A stretch of 64,000 nt of DNA, from the NCBI GenBank assembly GCA_965223845.1, contig CBDCXR010000004.1, positions 608,001 through 672,000 of the forward strand, in the 5' to 3' direction. This DNA is from Planctomycetota bacterium. GTDB lineage: Bacteria > Planctomycetota > UBA8108 > SXIK01. Below are positions 2,181-16,146 of this stretch, piece by piece; position 1 is the first letter of the stretch; the number at the start of each line of letters is the position of its first letter. Both the position numbers and the translations under genes were made by a program. The notes beneath the pieces are model-generated. The model saw only the letters and a list, made by a program, of their open reading frames with translations, did no database searches and was not told the DNA's origin.

Positions 2181-3665
2181 ATGACGGTGGACCCCGAGCT
2201 CGTCGAGAAGCGCGCCGAGCTCATTCGATCCGGAACGAATCCGTATCCGTACTCGTTCGATCGTTCTCATTCGCTCGCCGAAGTCCGAGCGCAGCAGGAT
2301 GCACTCATCGATCGCGAGGTGCGCGTCGCCGGCCGCCTCGTGGCGTACCGCGGGAAGGGAAAGATGATCTTTGCCGACATCGCGGACGCGAATTCGCGTA
2401 TGCAGGTGATGTTTCGGAAGAATCACTACGACGAAGCCGCCTGGGACATCGTTCGGCGGAAGCTCGATGTCGGAGACTGGATCGGCATCACGGGGCCCGT
2501 ATTCATTACGAAGATGGGCGAGCTCACCGTCGAAGCGAAATCGACGGAGCTCCTCGCCAAGACGACCATGCGCGTCCCGATCCCGAAGTCGAAGGACGAG
2601 AAGTCCTTCTTTCAGCTCGCCGATCCCGAGACGCTGTACCGCGAGCGCTATCTCCACTGGATCACCGATCCGTCCGCGCGCGAGATCGTCGCCACGCGGG
2701 CGCGGATCATTCGCGCCATCCGGCACTTTCTCGACGAGCGAGCGTTCCTGGAAGTGACGACGCCGACCATCGAGATGAATTACGGCGGCGCCGAAGCCCG
2801 TCCGTTCGAGACGGAGATCCACGCTCTCTCCGGGCAGCGGGCCTTTCTCCGCATCTCGCCCGAGCTCCCGCTCAAGCGTTTCATCGTCGGCGGCTTCGAG
2901 AAGGTCTACACGATCTGCCAGAACTTTCGGAACGAGGGAATCGACCGCAGTCACAATCCCGAGTTCACAATGCTCGAGTGGTACGAAGCGTTCACCGACT
3001 ACCACTATCAGATGGAGCAGTTCGAGACGCTCGTCTCGACGGTCGCCGAGGAAGTGACCGGCGGAATGAAAGTGGTCTACGAGGGCACGGAGATCGATTT
3101 CACGCCGCCGTGGCGTCGATTGACGGTGCTCGATGCGCTGAAGGAGCGCGGCATCGACGCCGGGGGGATGGATGAGGCCGGTTTGCGAGCCGAGCTCACG
3201 AAGCGGGGGATCGAGGTGCCGAATCCGTTCTCGTGGGGACACGCGGTTGCCGCGCTCTTCGAGGAGCTCGTCGAACACGAACTCGTTCAGCCGACTTTCG
3301 TTTGCGATCACCCCGTAGCCATTTCCCCCCTCACGAAGGCGAAGCGGGGAGACGATCGACTCGTGGAGCGTTTCGAGCCGATGGTTGCGGGGATGGAGAT
3401 CGGGAACGCGTACAGCGAGCTCACCGATCCCATCGAGCAGCGGGCTCGACTCGAAGCTCAGCGCGATTTCGGACCGGATGATGACGGGGTCGAGCACCAC
3501 CCGCTCGACGAGGACTTCCTCAAGGCGCTCAGTTGCGGTATGCCGCCGACCGGCGGGGTCGGTCTCGGCGTCGATCGGCTCGTGATGCTCCTCACCGATC
3601 AGCACTCGATTCGCGATGTGATTCCATTTCCGATGATGCGCCGTCAGGATTCCGGCGGAGATTGA
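2181..3665 (+). CDS. lysS: Lysine--tRNA ligase (class II)
   Basis: OB-fold VAGRL/GDWIG, GGAEARPF, LRISPEL, FRNEGIDRSHNPEFTMLEWY, GMPPTGGVGLGVDRL. Confidence 0.97.
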   Translation: MTVDPELVEKRAELIRSGTNPYPYSFDRSHSLAEVRAQQDALIDREVRVAGRLVAYRGKGKMIFADIADANSRMQVMFRKNHYDEAAWDIVRRKLDVGDWIGITGPVFITKMGELTVEAKSTELLAKTTMRVPIPKSKDEKSFFQLADPETLYRERYLHWITDPSAREIVATRARIIRAIRHFLDERAFLEVTTPTIEMNYGGAEARPFETEIHALSGQRAFLRISPELPLKRFIVGGFEKVYTICQNFRNEGIDRSHNPEFTMLEWYEAFTDYHYQMEQFETLVSTVAEEVTGGMKVVYEGTEIDFTPPWRRLTVLDALKERGIDAGGMDEAGLRAELTKRGIEVPNPFSWGHAVAALFEELVEHELVQPTFVCDHPVAISPLTKAKRGDDRLVERFEPMVAGMEIGNAYSELTDPIEQRARLEAQRDFGPDDDGVEHHPLDEDFLKALSCGMPPTGGVGLGVDRLVMLLTDQHSIRDVIPFPMMRRQDSGGD

Positions 3666-3775: not shown

Positions 3776-5677
3776 ATGCTGATCTCCGCGCGTTCGATCG
3801 CCATTCTCGGGATCCTGGGGCTCCTCAGCGGGGGCCTTGCCCTCGCGACGAACGAAGAACCGCGCGAGGCCGGTGAGACGATCGAGCTTCCGCGCCGGCT
3901 CGAGGGTGTCACCGGTCCGCTCGATTGGGTGTTCGAGCGCGTCGAGACCGGCTCCGATCCGTTCGTCTCGGAAGAGGTCCACGATCGCATCGCGACCGCG
4001 ATCGAGCGCTGGCTGACGTACGTCCGGGAGGATCGATCGGAATCTTTCGTCGGCCCGCTCCCGCCCGAGGAGCCGTTGCCACCCGATGATCCGCTGCGCG
4101 CATTCCTCGCCGCGTCGTTTTCCGCTGAGCACCCCGCGCCGAGTCCGTTGGAGAGGCGATACGATCGGGGCGGGCTCGTTGTCGAGCGCGCGCGATTTCG
4201 TGCGGCGGGTCGTCCCGGATCGGATCCGGTGAGAGTGGGAGCGCGGTCTCTCCATCGCGCCCTCCGCACTCAGTTCGCGTGGCTGGGGACGCCGCGGGAC
4301 ACGAGACGGAAAATCGTACGCGTTCGCGTCGGGCGAGACGATCGTTCCGCGACGGTCCGCATCCTTTGCGAAGCGGACGGGATCGTTTCGTCGGCGCTCG
4401 GGACTGCGCCCGGCCGGCGCCAGTTCCGCGCGATCTGGGACCTCGACTGGATCCGCGAGCCGGTGGGGTGGCGACTCGCGCGCTTGAAACCGATCGCGTT
4501 CGAGCGCGCAGCCTGGCGCTCTCCGCCGTTCGCCGACGTCACCCGTCCGGCGTTCGGCGAGATCCCCGCGTTTCGGGATCAGCTTGCGCTCGGCACCGAT
4601 GCTTGGCGTGCGCGTCTCGACTCGGCGACGGGGATCGACATCTACGGCCACCAAGGCGTGAGCGTTGGCGATTACGACGGTGACGGTTGGGAAGATCTCT
4701 ACGTCGCGCAGCCGGCGGGCCTTCCGAATCGCCTCCTTCGCAACCGCGGGGACGGGAGCTTCGAGGACCGAACGCGCGGGTCCGGTCTCGATGTTCTCGA
4801 CGTCACCGGCGGCAGCCTGTGGATCGAGCTCGACGAGGACGGTGACGAAGACCTGGTGGTTGCGACGGGGCTCGCAGTGCTCGTGTTCGAGAACCGCGGT
4901 CGCGGAACGTTCCGCCACCGGGCCGATGCGCTCGCCGGAGCTTCGTCCGACGGTGCGTCGGCGATGGGCTGCGCGGCGAGTGACTACGACGGCGACGGCG
5001 ACCTCGACCTCTACGTCTACAGCTATCTCTTCTGGGCCGGCGCCGGCGCGAAGAGTCAGAGCACGTATCCGTACCCGTACCACGATGCGAACAACGGCGC
5101 GCCGAACGCCCTCTTTCGAAACGATGGCGGCTTTCGATTCACCGACGTCACCCGGGCCGCCGGAATGGAGCGCGCGAATCGACGCTTTTCCTTCGCGGCT
5201 TCGTGGTGCGACTACGACGAGGATGGCGATCCGGATCTCTACGTCGCGAATGACTTCGGCTCGAACAATCTCTACCGCAATCGCGGTGACGGCCGCTTCG
5301 ACGAGGTCGCCCGCGAGAGCGGCGTCCTCGATACGGGGAACGGGATGAGCGTCACCTGGGAGGATGTCGACGGCGACGGCCGCTTCGATCTCTACGTCGG
5401 GAACATGTGGTCGTCGGCCGGCGCGCGCCTTTCCGAGCAAGCTCGCTTCCGCGAGTCGAGCGGCGATCTCCAATCGCTCTACCGCCGAATGTCGCGCGGC
5501 AATTCGCTGTTCCGCAATCGCGGCGATGGCGGCTTCGACGACATCACCACACAGAGCGGAGCCGCCTTCGGGCGTTGGTCGTGGTCGGCGCAGTTTCTCG
5601 ATCACGACGGCGACGGTCGGCGCGAGCTCTACGTCGCGAACGGGTTCGTGACGAACACGGAGAAGCGCGATTTGTGA
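3776..5677 (+). CDS. FG-GAP repeat (CRTAC1/ASPIC-UnbV family) secreted protein, N-terminal part; ends at an in-frame TGA that is probably recoded
   Basis: Signal peptide MLISARSIAILGILGLLSGGLALA; repeated DxDxDGxxDLYV motifs; ORF stops mid-propeller at ELYVANGFVTNTEKRDL*. Confidence 0.85.
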   Translation: MLISARSIAILGILGLLSGGLALATNEEPREAGETIELPRRLEGVTGPLDWVFERVETGSDPFVSEEVHDRIATAIERWLTYVREDRSESFVGPLPPEEPLPPDDPLRAFLAASFSAEHPAPSPLERRYDRGGLVVERARFRAAGRPGSDPVRVGARSLHRALRTQFAWLGTPRDTRRKIVRVRVGRDDRSATVRILCEADGIVSSALGTAPGRRQFRAIWDLDWIREPVGWRLARLKPIAFERAAWRSPPFADVTRPAFGEIPAFRDQLALGTDAWRARLDSATGIDIYGHQGVSVGDYDGDGWEDLYVAQPAGLPNRLLRNRGDGSFEDRTRGSGLDVLDVTGGSLWIELDEDGDEDLVVATGLAVLVFENRGRGTFRHRADALAGASSDGASAMGCAASDYDGDGDLDLYVYSYLFWAGAGAKSQSTYPYPYHDANNGAPNALFRNDGGFRFTDVTRAAGMERANRRFSFAASWCDYDEDGDPDLYVANDFGSNNLYRNRGDGRFDEVARESGVLDTGNGMSVTWEDVDGDGRFDLYVGNMWSSAGARLSEQARFRESSGDLQSLYRRMSRGNSLFRNRGDGGFDDITTQSGAAFGRWSWSAQFLDHDGDGRRELYVANGFVTNTEKRDL

Positions 5678-5719
5678 AGTTTCTTCTGGCGGCAGGTCGT
5701 GCCGCGCGCCACGGGGAGA
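5675..5719 (+). promoter_or_regulatory. In-frame UGA plus candidate bacterial SECIS element
   Basis: TGA 5675-5677, 11-nt spacer, stem GCGGCA (5689-5694) / TGCCGC (5700-5705) with loop GGTCG; lower stem TTTCTTC (5680-5686) / GGGGAGA (5713-5719); core GCAGGTC matches the E. coli fdhF SECIS apex. Confidence 0.7.
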
Positions 5720-7798
5720 GCGACGTCGCTCAGTCGCTACGAGGAGACTTGGGAAGCGATCAACCGGATGATCCGCCGGGGCGGCTCGTGGTCCGGTCTC
5801 GAGCGCAACTGCTTCTTCGCGCGCAGTGACGACGGCGGTTTCCTCAACGTGTCGGGGGCGTCGGGGCTCGACGTGCTCCAGGACGGGCGCGCGGTTTGCG
5901 TGTTCGATTACGACCGTGACGGCGATCCGGATCTCGTGCTCAAGAGCCGCGATGCGCCGCAGCTTCGACTCTGGCGGAACGAAACGAACGCGGCGGAGCG
6001 ATGGCTCTCGATTCGACTCGAGGGCGCGGGCGCCGGCCGATCGAATCGATCGGCGATCGGTGCGCGCGTCGAGGCCCGATCCGCCGGGCGCGTCCAGGTA
6101 CAGGAAGTTCGCGCGGGCTCCGGCTTTCTATCCCAGAATTCGAAGACGCTTCGATTCGGCGGCGGCGATGCTCGAGCGTTCGCGCTCACCGTCCGCTGGC
6201 CGAGCGGAGAGACGCAGCGATTCGACGATGTCTCGACCGGTCGCGCCTACATCCTCCGCGAAGGGAAGGCGCTCTCGGAGGACCGCCGCGTTGAGCTCCC
6301 CGGGGCACGCGGCGATGCTGCGCTCGTCGGCGGAGCCGCGGAGGACGCTTCCCGCGGCGAGGGGGCCGATGAGGTCGATTCCGGGCGTGCGGCTCGAGCG
6401 GCGCGTGCGGAGTCGGAAACCGTCCTCGTCGAACCCCTCGCCGTGCCGCCCGTCGAGCTGCGTCGCGCCGACGGCGGTCCGTTTCGCTTCGACTCTCTCC
6501 GCGGCGAGTGGACGGTCCTTACCCTTTGGTCCGAAACCTGTGCCGCATGTCTCGCCGAGTTTGCCGAGTGGCGCGCGGCGCGCGACGTGGACTCCGCCGT
6601 TCGCTGGGTCGCGCTCTCGCGCTGGCCCGAGGACGGCGAGAACTCGCTCGCGATCGCGGCTCGGCGTGCCGAGCGCGCGCAATCCTACGGCGCTGAGCCC
6701 CTTTTTGTCTCGGAGAGGTCACTTCTGATCTTCGCGATTCTCTTCGAGGAGGTCGCGCGCTGGCCGCGCGACCTCGCGTTGCCGTCGAGTGTGCTCATCG
6801 ACCCCAACGGAAACCTCGTCCGACTCTACCGCGGTCGGGTTCCGTGGCCCGTTCTAGCGGCGGCGGTCGCCGAAGAGCAGCGTCCGGGGTGGGACCGGAT
6901 CGCCGGCGCGCTTCCTTTTCCCGGCCGCTACTTCGCGACATCGCTCCGCCGGAGCTATTTTCAACTCGGGGTACAGCTCGTCGAAGCTGGACTCGACGAA
7001 GCCCGCTGGGCGTTTGGACTCGCGCTCGATCGCCGTCCCGGCGATGTCGACACGCTCTACAACCTCGCTGTGATTCTTCAAGAGAGCGGCGAAGACGCAC
7101 GCGCGCTCGAGCTCTACGACGAGATCGTCCGCCTGCGGCGCGATTTCGTCGACGCCTGGGTGAATCGCGGCGTGCTTCTGGCGGAGTCCGAGCAATTCGA
7201 GGCCGCGCTCGCGTCGTTCTCCGAGGCGATCGCGCGGCGACCCGACCACGCCGAGGCGCGCGTCAACGCGGGAAACGTGTATCTCCGCCTTGGGCGAGTC
7301 GAAGACGCGCTCGCCGCCTACCTGAAGGCGGTCGAGCTCGAGCCCGAGCTCGGCGGACTCCGCAAGAATCTCGGCTCGCTCTACCGGCGTCTCGGTGACT
7401 TGCCACGCGCGCTCGAGGCCTACCGCGCCGCCGTCGATCTCGACCCGCGCGACGGCGATGGCTGGAGCGTTCTCGGCGCGGTCCACGCGCAGATGGGCGA
7501 CCTCGAGCGCGCGGTCGTCGCGCTCGAACGGGCCGTCGAGGTCGACCCGCGCTCGGCCGGGGCGCGCAACAATCTCGCCCTCGTCTACCAAGGGCTCGGG
7601 CGAACGCGCGATGCGATTCGCGAGCTCGAGCGCGCGGTCGAGCTCGCACCGAGTTTACCGGCCGCGAGCGTCAACCTCGCGCGCGCCTACGCGCGTGAGG
7701 GTCGAGTCGCGCCGGCGCGGCGCGTGCTCGAGGCACTTCTCGAGAGGGTACCGGACCATCCCGCCGCGCGGCGACTCCTAGAGGGGCTGCCGCGTTGA
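5678..7798 (+). CDS. C-terminal part of the same protein: last FG-GAP blades, ASPIC/UnbV domain, thioredoxin-like CxxC domain, TPR array
   Basis: Same frame as the upstream ORF; SWSGLERN, DYDRDGDPDL, SNRSAIGARV..GSGFLSQNS..VRWPSG (ASPIC/UnbV), LWSETCAAC, several TPRs; no RBS before the GTG at 5699. Confidence 0.85.
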   Translation, partial: SFFWRQVVPRATGRATSLSRYEETWEAINRMIRRGGSWSGLERNCFFARSDDGGFLNVSGASGLDVLQDGRAVCVFDYDRDGDPDLVLKSRDAPQLRLWRNETNAAERWLSIRLEGAGAGRSNRSAIGARVEARSAGRVQVQEVRAGSGFLSQNSKTLRFGGGDARAFALTVRWPSGETQRFDDVSTGRAYILREGKALSEDRRVELPGARGDAALVGGAAEDASRGEGADEVDSGRAARAARAESETVLVEPLAVPPVELRRADGGPFRFDSLRGEWTVLTLWSETCAACLAEFAEWRAARDVDSAVRWVALSRWPEDGENSLAIAARRAERAQSYGAEPLFVSERSLLIFAILFEEVARWPRDLALPSSVLIDPNGNLVRLYRGRVPWPVLAAAVAEEQRPGWDRIAGALPFPGRYFATSLRRSYFQLGVQLVEAGLDEARWAFGLALDRRPGDVDTLYNLAVILQESGEDARALELYDEIVRLRRDFVDAWVNRGVLLAESEQFEAALASFSEAIARRPDHAEARVNAGNVYLRLGRVEDALAAYLKAVELEPELGGLRKNLGSLYRRLGDLPRALEAYRAAVDLDPRDGDGWSVLGAVHAQMGDLERAVVALERAVEVDPRSAGARNNLALVYQGLGRTRDAIRELERAVELAPSLPAASVNLARAYAREGRVAPARRVLEALLERVPDHPAARRLLEGLPR

Positions 7799-7827: not shown

Positions 7828-9105
7828 CTACTTCGGCGCGGCAGCGGTCTCGGAGAGGATCTCGTTGTCGAACGAGATTCCGACGAACCCGATCATCATC
7901 TCCTCCCAGGTCTGGTCGCCCCAGCGGACTTCCTGGTCGGGATTCGGATTGAACGGATTCTCCTTCGAGTTGTCGTACACCGCCGTGCACTTGATCACCC
8001 AATCACGCTTGGCGTCGATCGGAGTCGCTAGCTCGTAGGCGTGCTGCCAGTTGAAGTCGTACTCGGGAACATCGAGGACGATCTCCGAGCTGCCGTCCGG
8101 CCGGATGATCTCGTAACGAAAGCTCTTGCCGCGAAGGTGCATGTGCGGCTGGAAGCCGTAGATCGTCCCGGGGCGGCGAAACCGGTAGCTGGCCGTCGAC
8201 TCGTACGCGCTCGCACCCGGAGGGATGCGAAGCCGGTGATTCATGACTGCGCGGAGGCGCATGCGGCGCTTCGGCGGTTCCTTCGCGAAGATGAGTCCGA
8301 CCGAGGACTGATCGAACTCTTCCTTCCCGGTCGGCGTGTAGTGCAGCTGGAGGAGAAGCTGCGAACCCGCCTTGACGAACTTTGCGGCGCCGTCCGGGTA
8401 CACATCGGGAGGAGTACCGGGAGCCATTCCGCAGAGATGGTTCTGCCAAAGATTGCGAATGCGCTTTCCGGGCTCCTGCACGAAGACGAGGATGTGGTGA
8501 ACGACCGCGGGGTTTCCCGGTCTCGCCTCGCCCGCGACGATCCACTTGTCTTCCTTGAAGTTCGTCGGGATCGTGATGTACTGATAGCGAATCGTGCCTT
8601 CCGCCTTGACGCGGAATTTCTTCGGCATGGTGAACACCACGTCGGGCTCGCCGATCCGCCATCCTTTGACGAACTTTTTCGGCGGCGGCAGATCCTTTGG
8701 GTCTCCTTCGACGGCGCCGTCGTCGACCCACTTCACGATCGTGTCGATCTCTGCGCTCGAGAGACGCGGGTCGTTCTTGAACTTGCCGTAGGCCGGATTC
8801 GCTCCCCACGGCGGCATCGACTTGTCCGCCACGTACTTCTTGATCGACTTCGCCCACGGGCGCGCGTCTTCGAACGTGAGGAGAGACATCGGTGCGACTT
8901 CACCGTCTCGATGGCAATCCTGGCAGGCCTTCTGAAAGATCGGGGCGATGTCTTTCGCGAATGTGACCTTCTTCGGTGCCGCACTCACCGGCTCTGCCGG
9001 AGCGGCCTCGATTCGGAGGGACGCTCCGACGACCATCGCGCAGCAAATCGCCGCCGGCGCGGCAAACGACAGGGCGGGGGACAGATTCCCGATCATGCTT
9101 CTCAT
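7828..9105 (-). CDS. Secreted c-type heme plus copper type II ascorbate-dependent monooxygenase-like protein
   Basis: Signal peptide, CQDCH heme motif, MPPW, VVHHIL, HMHLRG, YDFNWQ, EEMM; start 9105 or 9096. Confidence 0.8.
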   Translation of the reverse strand: MRSMIGNLSPALSFAAPAAICCAMVVGASLRIEAAPAEPVSAAPKKVTFAKDIAPIFQKACQDCHRDGEVAPMSLLTFEDARPWAKSIKKYVADKSMPPWGANPAYGKFKNDPRLSSAEIDTIVKWVDDGAVEGDPKDLPPPKKFVKGWRIGEPDVVFTMPKKFRVKAEGTIRYQYITIPTNFKEDKWIVAGEARPGNPAVVHHILVFVQEPGKRIRNLWQNHLCGMAPGTPPDVYPDGAAKFVKAGSQLLLQLHYTPTGKEEFDQSSVGLIFAKEPPKRRMRLRAVMNHRLRIPPGASAYESTASYRFRRPGTIYGFQPHMHLRGKSFRYEIIRPDGSSEIVLDVPEYDFNWQHAYELATPIDAKRDWVIKCTAVYDNSKENPFNPNPDQEVRWGDQTWEEMMIGFVGISFDNEILSETAAAPK

Positions 9106-9271
9106 AGTCCTTTGAGTCTCCTTTGGATTAGGATTCTCCGGTGCTTTAGATCCCGAGTCCACTCCGCGCTTGTCGGTTTTTGTCCGTTCTCGGGACGCGC
9201 ATGCGGCAATCGCCCGACGCTCGCGACGATTCGCGTGATGCACGGGCCGGAGACGAGTGAGGATTCGGTTC

Positions 9272-9607
9272 ATGACGACCCTGTTTCAAAAGATCATCGA
9301 CCGCGAAATCCCCGCGGACATCGTCTACGAGGATGATGACGCGCTCGCGTTTCGCGACATTCAGCCGCAGGCGCCGACGCACGTCCTCGTGATCCCGAAG
9401 AAGCCGATCGCGAAGATCGCCGACATGACGGAGGACGATCGCGCGATCCTCGGCCACGTTCTCTGGGTCGCCCGAACCGTCGCCGCGGAGGCGGGACTCG
9501 AGGACTACCGTCTCGTCATCAACAGCGGAGAAGGCGCCGGACAGACGGTGTTCCATCTTCACGTCCACGTCCTCGGCGGACGGCCGATGGCGTGGCCCCC
9601 GGGCTAG
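9272..9607 (+). CDS. hinT: Histidine triad (HIT) nucleotide-binding protein
   Basis: TLFQKIIDREIPA, PQAPTHVLVIPK, GQTVFHLHVHVLGGR..WPPG. Confidence 0.93.
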   Translation: MTTLFQKIIDREIPADIVYEDDDALAFRDIQPQAPTHVLVIPKKPIAKIADMTEDDRAILGHVLWVARTVAAEAGLEDYRLVINSGEGAGQTVFHLHVHVLGGRPMAWPPG

Positions 9608-10309: not shown

Positions 10310-10497
10310 GAAAGACTTGCGACTCTTCGTGGAAGGCGGAGATCATACCCCGCCCCGGAACGAGGAGCCAGAAGACGGCATCGCCTTGGCGCCGCGTCGA
10401 TCGTCCGGTTCGACTCGGTTCCGTGGCCGAGCGCCGTGACCCGGGCTTCCTCCGTCCCGACCGAGCTTCAACGATCCCCGAGTCGACCCCTCGCTTC

Positions 10498-13400
10498 ATG
10501 ATCTCGTCCAACCCCGGCCCGCGCGCGATTCGCCTTCGCGGAGTGCGTCAGAACAATTTGAAGAACGTCGACTGCGATCTGCCGCTCGGTCGACTGTCCG
10601 TCATCACCGGCGTCAGCGGCTCGGGGAAGTCCTCGCTCGCGTTCGACACGCTCTACGCCGAAGGGCAGCGGCGCTACCTCGAAACGTTTTCCGCGTACAC
10701 GCGGCAGTTCCTCGAACGCATTCCGCGACCCGACATGGACGAGATCGACGGCATTCCGCCGGCGGTCGCGATCGATCCGTACGGCGCGATCAAGACCTCG
10801 CGCTCGACCGTCGGAACGATGACGGGGGTCAACGACTATCTGAAGCTTCTCTTCGCGCGCGCGTCGACGGCGGTTTGCCCCGAGTGTGGGCGCGAGGTGG
10901 CACCGACCGGACGGGATGCCGTTCTCGCCGCGCTGGCGGACGAGTCCGCGCGCAGCTTCCCCGTCGTCGTCACGGCTCGGCTTTCGCTGCGCGGGTTCGA
11001 TGCGATCGAGGTCGTTCAGCGCGCGTTGACCGCTCAGGGGCTGCTCCGCTGCCGCACGGAATCCGGTGTCGTCCGGGTCGACGAGCTGAGCGCCGACGAC
11101 CTCTCGTCGGGCGAGCTCGACGTGGTCGTCGACCGCTGGGCGAGCGCTCGCGTCTCCCGTGCGCGGCGGGCCGAAGCCGTCGAGCGCGGATTGCGCCTCG
11201 GGGGCGGCGAGCTGCGCGTCTACCTCGCCTCCGGCGACTGCCGCGCGTTCTCCGAGCGGCTCGCGTGCCGCGAATGCGAGATCGACATCCTTCCGCCGTC
11301 GCCGGCGCTCTTCTCGTTCAACCATCCCTACGGCGCGTGCCGCGACTGCCGCGGCTTCGGGCGAGTGATCGAGCTCGACTGGAATCGCGTCGTCCCGGAT
11401 CCGCGTCTCTCTCTCGAGGCCGGTGCGGTGAAGCCGTGGGAGACGAAGCGCGGCCGGGGCGCGAAGCGACGTGCTCTCACCGCGCTTCGTGCTCTCGGAC
11501 TCGCGACGGACGTACCGTTCTCGGCGTATTCCGCCGCGGAACGAAAGCTCGTCCTCGAGGGCGATGGCTCCTTTTCCGGCGTGCGAGGCTTCTTTCGCCG
11601 ACTCGAGTCGAAGAAGTACAAGATGCACGTGCGCGTTTTCCTCGCGCGTTTTCGGGGCTACGAGGAGTGCCCGAAGTGCCGCGGCGGCCGCCTTCGACTC
11701 GGCGCGCTCGCGCACCGCGTCCGCGATCGGACCCTGCCGGAGATCTGGGCTCTTCCGATCCGCGATCTCCTCGAGGTCTTTCCGCGCGACTGGGTCGGAG
11801 CGCTCGCGCGGCCGGCGCGGCTCATCGGAGAGGAGATTCGTTCACGCCTCGAGTACCTGGACGCGGTCGGACTCGGGTACCTCTCTCTCGGGCGGCAGTC
11901 GCGCACTCTCTCCGGCGGCGAGGTGGAGCGCGTCAATCTGACCTCGGCGCTCGGCGCGTGTCTCGTCGATACGCTCTTCGTGCTCGACGAACCTTCGATC
12001 GGCCTCCACGCGCGCGACAACGATCGCCTCCTCGGGATCCTCCGCGCGGTACGCGACCGCGGGAACACGGTCGTCGTCGTCGAGCACGACCCGGCGCTCA
12101 TGAGCGCGGCGGAGTTTCTGGTCGATCTCGGACCGGGCTCGGGCGAGCGCGGCGGGGAAATCGTCGCTGCGGGGTCGGTCGAGCAGGTGATGGCGACGGC
12201 GAAGTCTCTCACCGGCGCTTATCTCCGCGGGGAAAAGTCCGTCGCGGCCGAGCGGACGCCCCGCCCGATCGGGAAGCAGGCGCTTCGCGTCCGCGGAGCC
12301 GAGGAGAACAACCTCGGCGGCGGAGCGCGCGGACTCGACATCGACGTTCCGCTCGGCGGGTGGACGGTCGTGAGCGGCGTGTCGGGATCCGGGAAGAGTA
12401 CGCTTCTCGAGAAGGTTCTCTGGCGCTCGTATCTCCACGAACGGGGCCGCGGCGACGACGGTCCGCCGCGCGTCCGATCGATTTCGGGCTTCGACCTCGT
12501 CGACGAAGTCGTCCTCGTCGATCAATCTCCGATCGGAAAGACGCCGCGCGGAAACCCGGCGACGTACACGAAGATCTTCGATCGGATCCGTGCGCTCTTC
12601 GCCGCGTCTCCGGCCGCGAAGCGAAACGGGTTCGAGGCGGGTCACTTCTCCTTCAACGTCGAGGGAGGACGCTGTCCGGAGTGCAGCGGCGCCGGCTACG
12701 AGCAGGTGGAGATGCAGTTTCTCTCCGACGTGACACTGGTCTGCGAGGCCTGCGCGGGGCGTCGGTTCCGCGACGCGGTCCTCGAGGTGCGAGTGGACGG
12801 TCGCAACGTCGCCGACGTCCTCGAGCTGACCATCGCAGAAGCGGCGAGTGTCTTCGAGCGCGAGCCGGGGCTCGCGGAGAGCCTCGATTTTCTCGCCGCT
12901 CTCGGGCTTGGATACCTGCGTCTCGGACAGCCGATCAACACGCTCTCGGGCGGGGAGGCGCAGCGGCTGAAGCTGGCCGGCCGGGTGCTCGCCGCGCGCC
13001 GCGAGCGGCTTCTCTTTCTCCTCGACGAGCCGACGACCGGTCTCCATCTGGACGACGTGCGCCGACTGATCGCCGTCTTCGACGAGCTCGTCGCGCGCGG
13101 GCACAGCCTCGTTGTGATCGAGCACCATCTCGATGTCATCGCCGCCGCGGACCACGTGATCGATCTCGGTCCGGAGGGCGGCGACGCCGGAGGTCGGCTC
13201 GTCGCGAGCGGCACGCCTCGCGACCTCGCGGCGAACTGGCGCGAGACCGGCTCGGTCACCGGCGACTGGCTCGAGCGGCACTTTGGCGGCGAGCTGGTGG
13301 CGAAGGATCCGCCGGCGCCGACCGCCAGGTCGAGCGATCTCCGTCCAGCCATTCGGGTCGTCGGTGCGCGCGAAAACAATCTGCGCGGAATCGACGTTTC

Positions 13401-16146
13401 GCTCCCGCTTCACGAGCTCGTCGTCGTGACGGGACTCAGCGGCTCGGGAAAATCCTCGCTCGTCTACGATATCGTCTTCGCCGAAGGACAGCGCCGCTAC
13501 CTCGATTGTCTGTCGCCGTACGCGCGCCAGTTCATCGAGGATCTCCGGCGCCCCGACATAGACCACCTCGAAGGGATTCCGCCGACCGTCGCGATCGAGC
13601 AGCGGACGTCCGTCGGCGGACGCCGCTCGACGGTCGGAACGGTGACCGAGATCTACCAGCTACTCCGACTCCTCTACGCGCGGTGCGGCGTGCAGATGTG
13701 TCCCGATTGCGGGGACGAGGTCGCGCCGCGCCCGGAGGCGGACATCGTGCGCGAAGTCGGGCGACTCGCACGCCGCGGAGGTCGGCTCCTCGCGCCCGTC
13801 GTGCGCGGGAAGAAGGGATTTCACTCGAAGCTCCTCGCCGGCGCGAGGCGACGCGGCATCCTCGACGCGAGGGTCGACGGCGAGTGGCTCGCGCTCCTGG
13901 CGGATCGCGAAGTCCGTCTCGAGCGCCACCGCGCCCACGACATCGATCTCGTCGTCGGGTCGTACGGCCGGGACGACAAGCCTCTCGCGCTCCGGGACGA
14001 AGTCGGCCTCGGGCTCGAGCTCGGCGGTGGAGTCGTGCGGTTTCTCGCGCGCGACGGGACCGAGCGCGTCCTCAACCGGCACCGGTCGTGTCCCTCCTGC
14101 GAGCGCGACTTCGATGAGCCGCAGCCGCGAAGCTTCAGCTTCCATTCGACTCACGGTCGCTGTCCGGAATGCGGAGGGGACGGCGTGCGCCTTGCGATCG
14201 AACCGGAGAGGTGGATCTCGCATTGGAACGCGCCTCCGACCCAGCGGGGGCGCGGTCCGTTCGACGTGCTCCTCGATCCGCCGTTCGCCAAGTCGACGCG
14301 TACTCGCGTTCTCCGGTCGCTGCGGTCGCTCGAAGAGGCGGGTCGCCTGCGCGGCGGCGGTGTGGACCGCCCACTCGCCTCCTGGTCGAAGCGCGCGCTC
14401 GCGATCTTGTTCGACGGCGACCGGTCCGGGACGTTCGCGGGGCTCCGCGCGATCGCGGAGGTCGCCCTCGCGCGGCTCGAGCCGGACGCCGCAGACACGT
14501 ACCGGCGCGCCTGGGGGGGCGAGCTCCCCTGCGAAGCCTGCGCCGGCGGCCGACTCGCCCGCGACTCGCTCGCGGTCGAGTTCGCGGGCCGCAGCATCGG
14601 CGAGCTCGCCCAGGCGACGACGACGGAGCTGCGCGCTTTCTTCGCCGGCGTCAAGCTCCGCGGGCGCGATCGAGCGATCGCCGGACCGATCGTCGACGAG
14701 GTGCGCGCGCGCCTCGAGTTCCTCGATCGAGTCGGGCTCTCGTACCTCGATCTGAACCGGAGCGCGGCGACGCTGTCGACGGGCGAAGCGCAGCGAATTC
14801 GGCTGGCGGCTCAGCTGGGGTCGAAGCTGCGCGGAGCCTGCTACATCCTCGACGAGCCGACGATCGGACTCCATCCGCGCGACAACGCGATGCTCCTTTC
14901 GACGCTCCGCGATCTCCGCGATCGCGGGAACAGCGTGCTCGTCATCGAGCACGACGAGGAGACGATCGAAGCGGCGGATACCGTGGTCGACATGGGGCCC
15001 GGTCCCGGGCGACACGGGGGGGAGATCGTCTTTCAGGGAAGTGTCGAGGCCCTCCTCGAGGACCCGCGCAGCGCCACGGCGGTAGCGCTGCGAGAACGCC
15101 GTGGCGTCACGGTGACTCCGAGCCGCCGCGACTGGCACGGTGAACCTGCGGTGGTCGTTCGCGGCGCACACCGCCACAACTTATCCGGGATCGACGTGCG
15201 GTTCCCGCTCGGCGCGGTCACTCTGGTGACGGGGGTGTCCGGCGCGGGGAAGTCGACGCTCGTTCGCGACGTGCTCGAAGAGAGCGTGCGACGTCACCTC
15301 CGCGGTCTTCACTCGGCGGCGAGCGGGTGCGCCGAAGTTGCCGGCGCCGCACTCGTCGACGCGATTCGGGAGGTCGATCAGCTGCCGATCGGACGCACTC
15401 CGCGGTCGACGCCCGCCACCTACGTCGGATTCTGGGACCGCATTCGCGCGGCCTTTGCGGCGACGCCCGAAGCGCGAACCCGCGGCTACGACAAGCGGCG
15501 CTTCTCGTTCAATGTCGGCGGCGGTCGGTGCGACGCGTGCGCCGGACAGGGAAGGCTCCGCGTCGAGATGAACTTTCTCCCCGACGTCGAGATGCGGTGC
15601 GAATCCTGCGGCGGACGGCGGTTCAATTCGGAGACCCTCGAGATCACGTATCGCGGGAAAACGATCGCGGATGTCCTCGCCATGGATGTCGAGGCGGCGA
15701 GCGAATTCTTTGCCGCGTACCCGGAGATCGCGCGGAGCCTCGCCGCTCTCGCCGACCTCGGTCTCGGGTATCTCACGCTCGGTCAAGCGAGCACGACGCT
15801 ATCGGGCGGCGAAGCCCAGCGGGTGAAGCTCGCGGTCGAGCTCGCCAAGACGGCGGGCGGGACTTGCCTCTATCTTCTCGACGAGCCGACGACGGGCCTC
15901 CACCTCCGCGACGTGGAGAAGCTCGCCCGCGTTCTTCGCCGGCTCGCCGAGGCGGGCCACGCCGTCGTCGTGGTCGAGCATCACGTCGAACTCATCGCCG
16001 GAGCGGATTGGGTGATCGATCTCGGACCGGAAGGCGGGAGCGCGGGCGGTGGGCTCGTTTACGAAGGGGCGCCGGCGGGGCTCATCCGAGCGCGGGGCTC
16101 GCACACGGGCCGGGCACTCGCGGGAGCGCTCGAGCGAAGACGCTGA
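10498..16146 (+). CDS. uvrA: Excinuclease ABC subunit A, tandem-duplicated double-length form
   Basis: Four Walker A motifs (GVSGSGKS x2, GLSGSGKS, GVSGAGKS), EGQRRY twice, LSGGE/LSTGE signatures, multiple CxxC zinc modules. Confidence 0.95.
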   Translation: MISSNPGPRAIRLRGVRQNNLKNVDCDLPLGRLSVITGVSGSGKSSLAFDTLYAEGQRRYLETFSAYTRQFLERIPRPDMDEIDGIPPAVAIDPYGAIKTSRSTVGTMTGVNDYLKLLFARASTAVCPECGREVAPTGRDAVLAALADESARSFPVVVTARLSLRGFDAIEVVQRALTAQGLLRCRTESGVVRVDELSADDLSSGELDVVVDRWASARVSRARRAEAVERGLRLGGGELRVYLASGDCRAFSERLACRECEIDILPPSPALFSFNHPYGACRDCRGFGRVIELDWNRVVPDPRLSLEAGAVKPWETKRGRGAKRRALTALRALGLATDVPFSAYSAAERKLVLEGDGSFSGVRGFFRRLESKKYKMHVRVFLARFRGYEECPKCRGGRLRLGALAHRVRDRTLPEIWALPIRDLLEVFPRDWVGALARPARLIGEEIRSRLEYLDAVGLGYLSLGRQSRTLSGGEVERVNLTSALGACLVDTLFVLDEPSIGLHARDNDRLLGILRAVRDRGNTVVVVEHDPALMSAAEFLVDLGPGSGERGGEIVAAGSVEQVMATAKSLTGAYLRGEKSVAAERTPRPIGKQALRVRGAEENNLGGGARGLDIDVPLGGWTVVSGVSGSGKSTLLEKVLWRSYLHERGRGDDGPPRVRSISGFDLVDEVVLVDQSPIGKTPRGNPATYTKIFDRIRALFAASPAAKRNGFEAGHFSFNVEGGRCPECSGAGYEQVEMQFLSDVTLVCEACAGRRFRDAVLEVRVDGRNVADVLELTIAEAASVFEREPGLAESLDFLAALGLGYLRLGQPINTLSGGEAQRLKLAGRVLAARRERLLFLLDEPTTGLHLDDVRRLIAVFDELVARGHSLVVIEHHLDVIAAADHVIDLGPEGGDAGGRLVASGTPRDLAANWRETGSVTGDWLERHFGGELVAKDPPAPTARSSDLRPAIRVVGARENNLRGIDVSLPLHELVVVTGLSGSGKSSLVYDIVFAEGQRRYLDCLSPYARQFIEDLRRPDIDHLEGIPPTVAIEQRTSVGGRRSTVGTVTEIYQLLRLLYARCGVQMCPDCGDEVAPRPEADIVREVGRLARRGGRLLAPVVRGKKGFHSKLLAGARRRGILDARVDGEWLALLADREVRLERHRAHDIDLVVGSYGRDDKPLALRDEVGLGLELGGGVVRFLARDGTERVLNRHRSCPSCERDFDEPQPRSFSFHSTHGRCPECGGDGVRLAIEPERWISHWNAPPTQRGRGPFDVLLDPPFAKSTRTRVLRSLRSLEEAGRLRGGGVDRPLASWSKRALAILFDGDRSGTFAGLRAIAEVALARLEPDAADTYRRAWGGELPCEACAGGRLARDSLAVEFAGRSIGELAQATTTELRAFFAGVKLRGRDRAIAGPIVDEVRARLEFLDRVGLSYLDLNRSAATLSTGEAQRIRLAAQLGSKLRGACYILDEPTIGLHPRDNAMLLSTLRDLRDRGNSVLVIEHDEETIEAADTVVDMGPGPGRHGGEIVFQGSVEALLEDPRSATAVALRERRGVTVTPSRRDWHGEPAVVVRGAHRHNLSGIDVRFPLGAVTLVTGVSGAGKSTLVRDVLEESVRRHLRGLHSAASGCAEVAGAALVDAIREVDQLPIGRTPRSTPATYVGFWDRIRAAFAATPEARTRGYDKRRFSFNVGGGRCDACAGQGRLRVEMNFLPDVEMRCESCGGRRFNSETLEITYRGKTIADVLAMDVEAASEFFAAYPEIARSLAALADLGLGYLTLGQASTTLSGGEAQRVKLAVELAKTAGGTCLYLLDEPTTGLHLRDVEKLARVLRRLAEAGHAVVVVEHHVELIAGADWVIDLGPEGGSAGGGLVYEGAPAGLIRARGSHTGRALAGALERRR

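Follow-up and report, generated by a model that had tools for sequence, protein, structure and literature searches.

A conserved in-frame UGA points to a probable selenoprotein family that joins an FG-GAP propeller/UnbV module to a TlpA-like CxxC domain in Planctomycetota and other bacteria

Proteins of the CRTAC1/ASPIC-UnbV family, of which human cartilage acidic protein 1 is an example, consist of an FG-GAP calcium-motif beta-propeller followed by an UnbV_ASPIC domain, and we know of no biochemical function for the family. The thioredoxin-fold selenoproteins of bacteria combine recoding of UGA, directed by a bacterial selenocysteine insertion sequence (bSECIS), with a fold of the TlpA/AhpC-TSA type and a probably extracytoplasmic redox role, and they carry selenocysteine (Sec) inside the redox motif itself (UxxC, CxxU or UGC). 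TlpA of Bradyrhizobium, a stand-alone and membrane-anchored periplasmic thiol:disulfide reductase, has a CxxC motif, while in the neisserial PilB (Trx-MsrA-MsrB) a TlpA-like CxxC domain, fused to the catalytic domain in the periplasm, serves to recycle it in cis. Here we describe a predicted selenoprotein gene from a Planctomycetota bacterium (GenBank assembly GCA_965223845.1) that brings these elements together; it lies on contig CBDCXR010000004.1 within positions 608,001 to 672,000 of the forward strand, a stretch of 64,000 nucleotides which was analysed as a whole and is referred to as the window. The putative Sec of its product would be located in the beta-propeller module, 288 residues upstream of an all-cysteine CAAC motif, unlike the arrangement in the thioredoxin-fold selenoproteins. 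The best relative of known structure for the propeller/UnbV segment is human CRTAC1 (PDB 9etn; E 8.4e-34, profile A2), although this alignment skips the stretch predicted to bear Sec (query residues 334-450 of the 611-aa segment) and CRTAC1 has neither a TlpA-like domain nor tetratricopeptide repeats (TPR). For residues 871-1060 the best solved relative is the Bradyrhizobium TlpA (PDB 1jfu; E 1.5e-6), the similarity being weak at 31.5 bits and the domain being fused in this case between UnbV and TPR. The parallel with PilB is an analogy of design only and not one of membership; its catalytic domain is unrelated, and PilB is not known to contain Sec.

The gene corresponds to one frame of 1340 codons (window positions 3776-7798) whose sole interruption is a TGA at 5675-5677, this being codon 634 when numbered from the ATG at 3776. 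An initial annotation, based on the letters and their translated open reading frames (ORFs), had proposed that two ORFs are parts of a single gene divided by this one TGA, and the frame and translation bear this out, as the frame of the ORFs 3533/3776..5677 and 5699..7798 is identical and reading across the TGA gives ...ELYVANGFVTNTEKRDL-U-SFFWRQVVPRA... at the junction. It is very probable, judging from the comparative evidence presented below, that the UGA at 5675-5677 specifies Sec. TGA also serves as a normal stop codon in this organism, since both the gene under study (7796-7798) and the upstream class II tRNA synthetase gene (3663-3665) terminate with it. Contigs from four Logan DNA runs (two samples, one study) reproduced window positions 5400-5701 with 0 differing letters, so that TGA rather than a sense codon is present in the sequencing data; these runs are possibly the source of the assembly, and they confirm the letters without constituting independent support. 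The unitigs of all four runs were seen to end exactly at the UGA and the adjoining hairpin (window 5672-5705) with several different loose ends, and the summed depth rose there from 2-35 to 89-335; the 31-mers of this element appear to be common to many metagenome genes, perhaps from many organisms. A GGAGG-like word is absent before the GTG at 5699 and equally absent before the ATG at 3776.

Read through the UGA, the product would be an exported protein comprising, in this order, a signal peptide, an unassigned N-terminal domain, an FG-GAP propeller with Sec634, an UnbV/ASPIC domain, a TlpA-like CxxC domain and a TPR array (Table 1). Inspection of the N-terminus, MLISARSIAILGILGLLSGGLALA/T, by eye suggests a signal peptide, and P0045, a homolog with cysteine at the site, also has a signal-like start (MKKSHLLLVLLPLVAALPWAGA). 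Residues 1-285 of the joined protein gave no match to a Pfam family. FG-GAP_3 (PF13517) was matched in five stretches (E 4.2e-43; 146.2 bits, over the cut-off) and FG-GAP with an E-value of 5.4e-22, and on the joined protein the UGA falls between two DxDxDG blades, that is, inside the propeller as had been proposed. With AhpC-TSA the score was 22.4 bits for the full-length sequence and 29.7 bits (cut-off 26) on scanning the isolated domain, in which the motif stands in the context W-S-E-T-C-A-A-C. A thioredoxin domain with a CAAC motif and a TPR region, both of which had been read from the translation, were thus recovered in the same polypeptide, at residues 922-925 for the motif and 1085-1335 for the repeats.

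Conservation of the TGA was established at several levels of relatedness. A six-frame search of 41 related genomes with residues 480-800 as query returned 100 matches in 25 genomes, with identities reaching down to 35%; 88 of the matches contained exactly one in-frame stop, which was always TGA, and 12 contained none. When read through, the single-TGA relatives are open frames of ~1000-1480 aa. All 34 loci checked carry the TGA in the identical alignment column, within the motif D-[LT]-U-S-[FV]-[FY]-W-R-[QH]-V-V, with no further stop in the 611 codons around the site. Neither TAA nor TAG at the site, nor an out-of-frame junction, was encountered among the homologs examined, these being patterns that had been named beforehand as speaking against the proposal. 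Within a phylum sample of 301 genomes a homolog was detected at E <=1e-30 in 74, and among the matches listed exactly one TGA was present in 131 of 150, the in-frame stop again being always TGA. A scan of 185,579 species genomes yielded at least 554 confirmed loci out of at least 588 pattern matches; the residue counts given for named loci are from the best 80 of these at least 554 loci, 45 of which possess TGA at the site. De-duplication left 71 unique Sec-type genes, which bear out the expectation of a conserved TGA at the DL-x-SFFWRQ position. The internal codon is TGA in 71/71, whereas the true terminal stops of the 39 genes whose locus reaches the terminator are mixed (TAA 8, TAG 16, TGA 15); a terminator of the ordinary kind would have drifted among the three codons.

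According to their NCBI labels, the TGA carriers belong to Planctomycetota (including Phycisphaerae), to Acidobacteriota (Bryobacterales, Solibacter, Thermoanaerobaculia, Aminicenantes and Marinacidobacterales) and to Verrucomicrobiales, and the family-level relatives of the window's genome have the label Planctomycetota. The predicted family would hence be found under at least three phylum labels, namely Planctomycetota, Acidobacteriota and Verrucomicrobiota. Latescibacterota was left out of the carrier phyla because of the conflicting labels of L116 and L117, which have equal identity (54.206%) and sequence context, yet are titled Bryobacterales and Candidatus Latescibacterota, respectively; one of the two labels or bins is probably wrong. 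The window's genome (G000) harbours eight TGA-type copies in addition to one TGA-less relative, the latter at contig C4, 5742453-5743349. The seven further paralogs (L057-L063), with the TGA in the same column and 41-54% identity to the window copy, were located on contig C4 at 2896056-2897006, 952028-953008, 354869-355843, 6221748-6222752, 3012124-3013131, 4394857-4395888 and 2068732-2069712. Tandem arrays of TGA-type copies, with a spacing of ~3.4-4.7 kb, were also observed in some genomes of the phylum sample (G259:C253 28648-40646, four copies on the minus strand; G316:C204 20447-28118, three copies; G229:C19 1363-13776, four copies; G209:C1 9489368-9493219, two copies).

A hairpin is present directly 3' of the UGA and inside the coding region, as in the E. 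coli fdhF-type SECIS and the bSECIS model, and it occupies the W-R-Q-V-V-P codons of the present family. In the window copy the stem of 6 bp starts 11 nt, and the loop 17 nt, after the UGA, and the bare hairpin has an energy of -10.0 kcal/mol; the GGUC loop and the 11-nt spacer presumably resemble those of fdhF. All 71 unique genes have bSECIS geometry, with the loop starting 16-21 nt after the UGA and a G in the first two loop positions, and 62 of them combine the 17-nt spacing with a 5-nt loop. As set out in PMC13188914, the bSECIS criteria comprise a loop of 3-9 nt that has G within its opening two positions, a stem of 4-16 bp, a distance of 16-37 nt from the UGA and a minimum free energy <=-7.5. 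The present element has a loop of 5 nt that starts G-G-U, a UGA-loop distance of 17 nt and a stem of 6-7 bp, and differs from that model in that only 43/71 genes reach -7.5 kcal/mol on the bare contiguous stem, 24 more having a value of -7.3. All four properties were displayed by 132 of 1420 shuffles. All 31 distinct genes that were aligned form the six core pairs (columns 15-20 with 26-31); one stem pair is AU in 14, GU in 8, GC in 6, CG in 2 and UG in 1 of these and unpaired in 0. The covarying pair involves an Arg codon, through its wobble base, and a Ser/Pro/Ala codon, through its first base, and the covariation score was 0.186 as compared to 0.093 in shuffles (0/500 of which reach 0.186), with slid partners at <=0.074. 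A fully paired stem was found in 73/79 TGA genes, 2/42 non-TGA homologs and 0/10 Cys-type genes (counts not de-duplicated), suggesting that the stem has decayed in homologs which encode the same SFFWRQVV peptide without the TGA. The divergent members (those with W-R-H-V-V-A, L063, and the copies of G258 and G260) have other sequences, with a hairpin at the same place.

The genome from which the window is derived encodes the machinery that such recoding would employ. Matches over the curated cut-offs were obtained for selB (320 bits), selA (536 bits) and selD (308 bits), and a tRNA-Sec was detected with 68.1 bits against a cut-off of 47 and classified by ARAGORN as SeC with anticodon tca, so that the search of this genome for the sel genes, which the initial annotation had called for, ended positively for all four components. 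The selD match (L017, G000:C4:5317241-5318161) is contained in an open frame of 809 aa, the selD model having 311 positions, and this frame may represent a fusion protein. With regard to co-occurrence, selA was present in 59/61 TGA-bearing genomes of the phylum sample as compared to 221/301 genomes overall (tallied by hand from two tables), and in 5/5 TGA-bearing genomes under other phylum labels.

Downstream of the UGA the frame has the properties of translated sequence. The S-F-F codons which follow it, outside the hairpin, vary mainly at the third position (C53/T16, C58/T12 and C60/T8 in the 71 Sec-type genes), the encoded S-F-F peptide is the same as in uninterrupted homologs, and the open frame after the site has a median length of 614 residues in Sec-type genes. 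A representative library of 1.84 billion proteins contained 24 entries (MPRATG..., MSQSP...) whose first residue lies 8-10 positions beyond the site. They are the C-terminal halves of Sec-type genes as produced by gene callers, one of them carrying the NCBI name 'tetratricopeptide repeat protein', and the anticipated splitting of the gene into two is thereby documented.

The distribution of cysteines links the thioredoxin-like domain to the site. When 130 unique genes were aligned over their full length, few columns had Cys in half or more of the Sec-type genes, namely the site itself, residues 679, 922 and 925, and column 415, the last of which is Cys in non-Sec genes as well. Residue 679 is Cys in 66% of the 71 Sec-type genes and V/I in the Ser/Ala/Gly types (Cys 1/30), and Cys was absent among the residues listed at this position for the Asp/Glu/Arg and Cys types. 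The CxxC motif was intact in 64/64 scorable Sec-type genes and in 24/24 Sec-type C-terminal half-ORFs as compared to 10/114 non-Sec homologs, a set enlarged by 80 full-length non-Sec proteins; in the Cys type the motif was present in 2/4. Its first, nucleophilic Cys was found in 0/30 Ser/Ala/Gly types and 0/6 Asp/Glu/Arg types; the second was kept in 20/30. Rows in which the site is followed by <330 residues, or the CxxC region is represented by <20, were treated as unscorable, L042-L044 (weak FG-GAP matches) were excluded from the coupling database, seven 'far' rows that lack the motif and have F, P, T, V, L, K or I at the site were excluded from both trees, and P0005 and P0056 are misaligned repeats among the 63 full-length representative rows. 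On a FastTree tree of 178 rows, calculated with the thioredoxin domain and the site column removed, 16 changes of site state and 15 changes of the CxxC were counted, and among eight independent pairs on supported branches the CxxC differed in the same way in 5.6, in the opposite way in 0 and not at all in 2.4 (sign test, median p 0.031, range 0.031-0.125). The 178-row set replaced an earlier tree of loci only, in which 3/3 pairs were concordant (p 0.25). It appears from these data that the CxxC redox motif is retained only where the predicted selenol (or a thiol) is retained, and recycling of Sec by the cis CxxC thioredoxin domain, which had been put forward as a guess, gains support from this distribution and from the joint changes on the tree. 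That the CxxC domain acts as the redox partner of Sec634 is, in our estimation, moderately probable. A complex prediction for P0045 (residues 255-850 with residues 880-1050) returned scores of 0.01 and 0.00, no answer, and speaks neither for nor against binding.

The explanation that we favour as a whole, and which we consider likely, is that of an exported selenoprotein of ~1340 residues with SECIS-directed decoding of UGA and a redox relay in cis. The UGA would be decoded by the SelA/SelB/SelD/tRNA-Sec system of the genome, directed by the hairpin 11 nt downstream, and Sec634 would constitute the redox-active residue of the propeller/UnbV module. Oxidation may convert this residue into a selenenic acid or selenenylsulfide, with Cys679 possibly taking part, and it could be re-reduced in cis by the nucleophilic Cys922 of the TlpA-like CxxC. 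Other periplasmic TlpA-like proteins draw electrons from a membrane reductant, and the TlpA-like domain might be recharged from such a source, while the TPR array would bind a partner or substrate. The data show the conserved UGA, the hairpin, the Sec machinery, the domain architecture and the evolutionary coupling of Sec with the CxxC; insertion of Sec as such, export, the chemistry and the way in which electrons flow are inferred, and assignment of any particular reaction, for example that of a peroxidase or a reductase, is doubtful.

A number of observations weigh against this explanation or limit the evidence for it. The presence of selenium in the polypeptide is inferred from sequence and not from experiment, and the raw counts overstate the support because kin are not independent of each other. 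The co-occurrence between TGA-type homologs and sel genes, which had been suggested as a check, discriminates only weakly, as selA is common in the phylum (73%). Two TGA carriers are negative for selA; G260 has selB, while G258, which is 90% complete, has neither selA nor selB over the cut-off. The copy in G258 (L163, contig C36, site near locus position 1975) reads ...APDG-U-S-C-V-W-Q-A-V-V and has its own 7-bp hairpin, GGCUGUG/CACAGCC. The fold of the window copy was no better than that of shuffles of this GC-rich sequence (z -0.91 for 38 nt; z -1.25 for 91 nt), and the case for the hairpin is consequently one of conservation and covariation and not of energy; Rfam gave no match to it, a permissive E-value producing only a chance miRNA match. 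The coupling test amounts to about six informative pairs on a FastTree topology and is modest statistically, though consistent in direction, and ten non-Sec homologs do keep the CxxC.

The residues that replace Sec belong to the same account. Among the best 80 loci those without TGA have Ser (17), Ala (11), Gly (2) and one each of Glu, Asp, Met, Asn and Cys; inside the phylum, Glu (4), Asp (2) and Arg (2) occupy the site in the closest homologs that lack TGA. It follows from these replacements that the fold, and perhaps some function, can do without the Sec residue. As selA is present in 4/5 genomes with Ser/Ala/Gly types, missing machinery is not the reason for the absence of Sec in these. 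The initial annotation had looked to Cys as the alternative to TGA at the site; Cys does occur there in the close homolog L162, in the representative proteins P0045 and P0040, and in a distant short subfamily (D-Y-C-T-x-F-W-x-H-D in 8/19 TGA-less loci of the phylum sample; 26-35% identity, ending ~200 residues after the site), but in the majority of homologs without TGA the residue is Ser, Ala, Asp, Glu or Gly. A Sec/Cys pair thus exists but is rare, and this is plausibly the cause of the family escaping searches that depend on Cys homologs. P0098, P0106 and P0107 (Glu-type) and P0118 (Ala-type), which lack the CxxC, have a Cys six residues after the site in F-[FY]-W-R-C-V-[VI], which may be a shifted thiol or due to chance.

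Such tolerance at the site, in homologs that are otherwise well conserved, together with the single Cys replacement among the best 80 loci and the selA of the Ser/Ala/Gly-type genomes, would agree with an alternative in which Sec is decoded but non-catalytic and the UGA serves as a selenium-dependent switch, all 1340 residues being made in the presence of selenium and only a 633-residue N-terminal fragment with an incomplete propeller when selenium is lacking. We consider this unlikely, as a switch does not predict that a distant nucleophilic CxxC Cys is kept in 64/64 Sec-type genes and lost in 104/114 others, nor that Cys is found at exactly this site in a distant subfamily and a few close homologs, and the truncated product would stop between propeller blades.

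Less likely again, and very improbable overall, is a conserved split gene, in which translation of an exported N-terminal propeller protein ends normally at the UGA and starts anew, by translational coupling, at the conserved GUG at 5699 inside the hairpin to give a second protein. Gene callers place the start of the second ORF at this GUG, the 24 half-ORFs open 8-10 residues beyond the site, ~66/71 genes have GTG as codon +8, and the loss of the hairpin along with the TGA is predicted by this arrangement as well. The invariance of the internal TGA set against the mixed true terminators is, however, at odds with it, as is the amino-acid-level selection on the seven codons between UGA and GUG, which encode S-F-F-W-R-Q-V as in the uninterrupted homologs. 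Furthermore, a separate signal peptide is lacking in the second half despite its propeller blades, UnbV and TlpA domain of periplasmic type, some members such as L063 have no in-frame GTG near the site, the GGUCG loop and the 11-nt spacing fit SelB-type elements, and the coupling with the CxxC would be left unexplained. Read-through that inserts Trp, Gly or Cys by means of a suppressor tRNA or a reassigned code has nothing specific in its favour beyond the fact that the inserted residue is not readable from the sequence alone, and is highly improbable given that TGA ends ordinary genes here (3663-3665; 7796-7798), that each family member has exactly one internal TGA and that the Sec machinery is complete. 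An accident of this one genome, be it a nonsense mutation, a pseudogene or an error of sequencing or assembly, as a single stop in a long frame would suggest were the gene seen in isolation, has a negligible probability, since the same TGA occurs in 71 unique genes under at least three phylum labels, with eight copies in this genome, and the contigs of four runs agree; mutation or error is ruled out by the TGA in the same column across related genomes and named loci.

With Sec decoding at the UGA as the preferred interpretation, the gene would represent a new selenoprotein family whose recoding mechanism is itself standard and whose substitution pattern and putative cis redox partner are unusual. 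The 119 families and subfamilies in Table 1 of a catalogue of prokaryotic selenoproteins from 2026 (PMC13188914) include no FG-GAP, ASPIC, UnbV or CRTAC1 entry, in keeping, as far as that table goes, with the premise that CRTAC1/ASPIC-UnbV proteins are not among the classical selenoprotein families. NCBIfam (June 2026) matched the joined protein with TPR-type models only and with no selenoprotein model, and our literature searches retrieved no earlier description of a CRTAC1/ASPIC-UnbV/FG-GAP selenoprotein. The accessible portions of the deep-Sep, BSepDB and planctomycete genome papers (PMC12013277, PMC13326102, PMC4807772) do not mention the family, and their supplementary lists might hold a candidate. 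As for the broadest formulation, a multi-phylum family of exported beta-propeller selenoenzymes in which Sec on a CRTAC1/ASPIC-type module is serviced in cis by a fused TlpA-like CxxC domain, we regard the chances as evenly balanced.

If correct, these assignments would establish a widespread selenoprotein family in the FG-GAP propeller/UnbV fold, which was not previously linked to selenium, and would provide a first catalytic (redox) handle on the CRTAC1/ASPIC-UnbV superfamily. They would also correct a systematic annotation error, each gene now being called as two proteins, and raise the selenoprotein count of the window's genome by eight; with up to eight or more paralogs per genome and tandem arrays, the family could rank among the most numerous selenoprotein families of Planctomycetota and Acidobacteriota. 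Its escape so far would be explained by the Ser, Ala, Asp or Glu that takes the place of Cys in its Sec-less relatives, since selenoprotein finders work by Sec/Cys pairs, and it exposes a blind spot in searches that require Cys homologs. The strict link between Sec and an intact CxxC in cis allows a hypothesis on the role of CRTAC1-like proteins of bacteria to be tested directly, and such proteins are plentiful in the Planctomycetota and Acidobacteriota of soil and water.

Table 1. Predicted features of the selenoprotein gene and its product (window coordinates; residues numbered from the ATG at 3776).
Feature	Position	Strand	Details
Complete selenoprotein gene (predicted)	3776..7798	+	1340 codons plus TGA stop at 7796-7798; single polypeptide with predicted Sec at codon 634
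Probable Sec-pathway signal peptide, residues 1-24	3776..3847	+	Identified by eye; A-L-A before the putative cut
FG-GAP (integrin-alpha-like) calcium-motif beta-propeller, residues ~290-730	4643..5965	+	Pfam; Sec site between two DxDxDG blades
Predicted Sec codon UGA, residue 634	5675..5677	+	Motif D-L-U-S-F-F-W-R-Q-V-V; TGA in this column in 71/71 unique Sec-type genes
Bacterial SECIS-like hairpin	5689..5705	+	5' arm GCGGCA (5689-5694), loop GGUCG (5695-5699), 3' arm UGCCGC (5700-5705)
Cys679, in S-W-S-G-x-E-R-N-C	5810..5812	+	45 residues after Sec; candidate resolving or relay cysteine
UnbV_ASPIC domain, residues 760-825	6053..6250	+	Pfam PF07593; 62.1 bits against a cut-off of 23.4
TlpA-like thioredoxin-fold domain, residues ~890-1013	6443..6814	+	AhpC-TSA; TlpA 1jfu; CxxC is C922-A-A-C925 (nt 6539-6550)
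C-terminal TPR array, residues ~1085-1335	7028..7780	+	TPR_1, TPR_2, TPR_11 and others; E 1e-40 to 1e-15

The genes that neighbour the predicted selenoprotein gene encode a heptosyltransferase, the class II tRNA synthetase, an unassigned ORF of 481 aa, an Rce1-like protease and a UvrA-like ORF, and this neighbourhood in the window provided no clue to its function. The 481-aa ORF (7828-9273, minus strand) adjoins the gene downstream in convergent orientation and has no Pfam match at E <=1e-5. The UvrA-like ORF (10423-16146, plus strand) encodes 1907 aa with UvrA DNA-binding and interaction domains and several ABC/AAA matches, and is approximately twice the usual length of UvrA.

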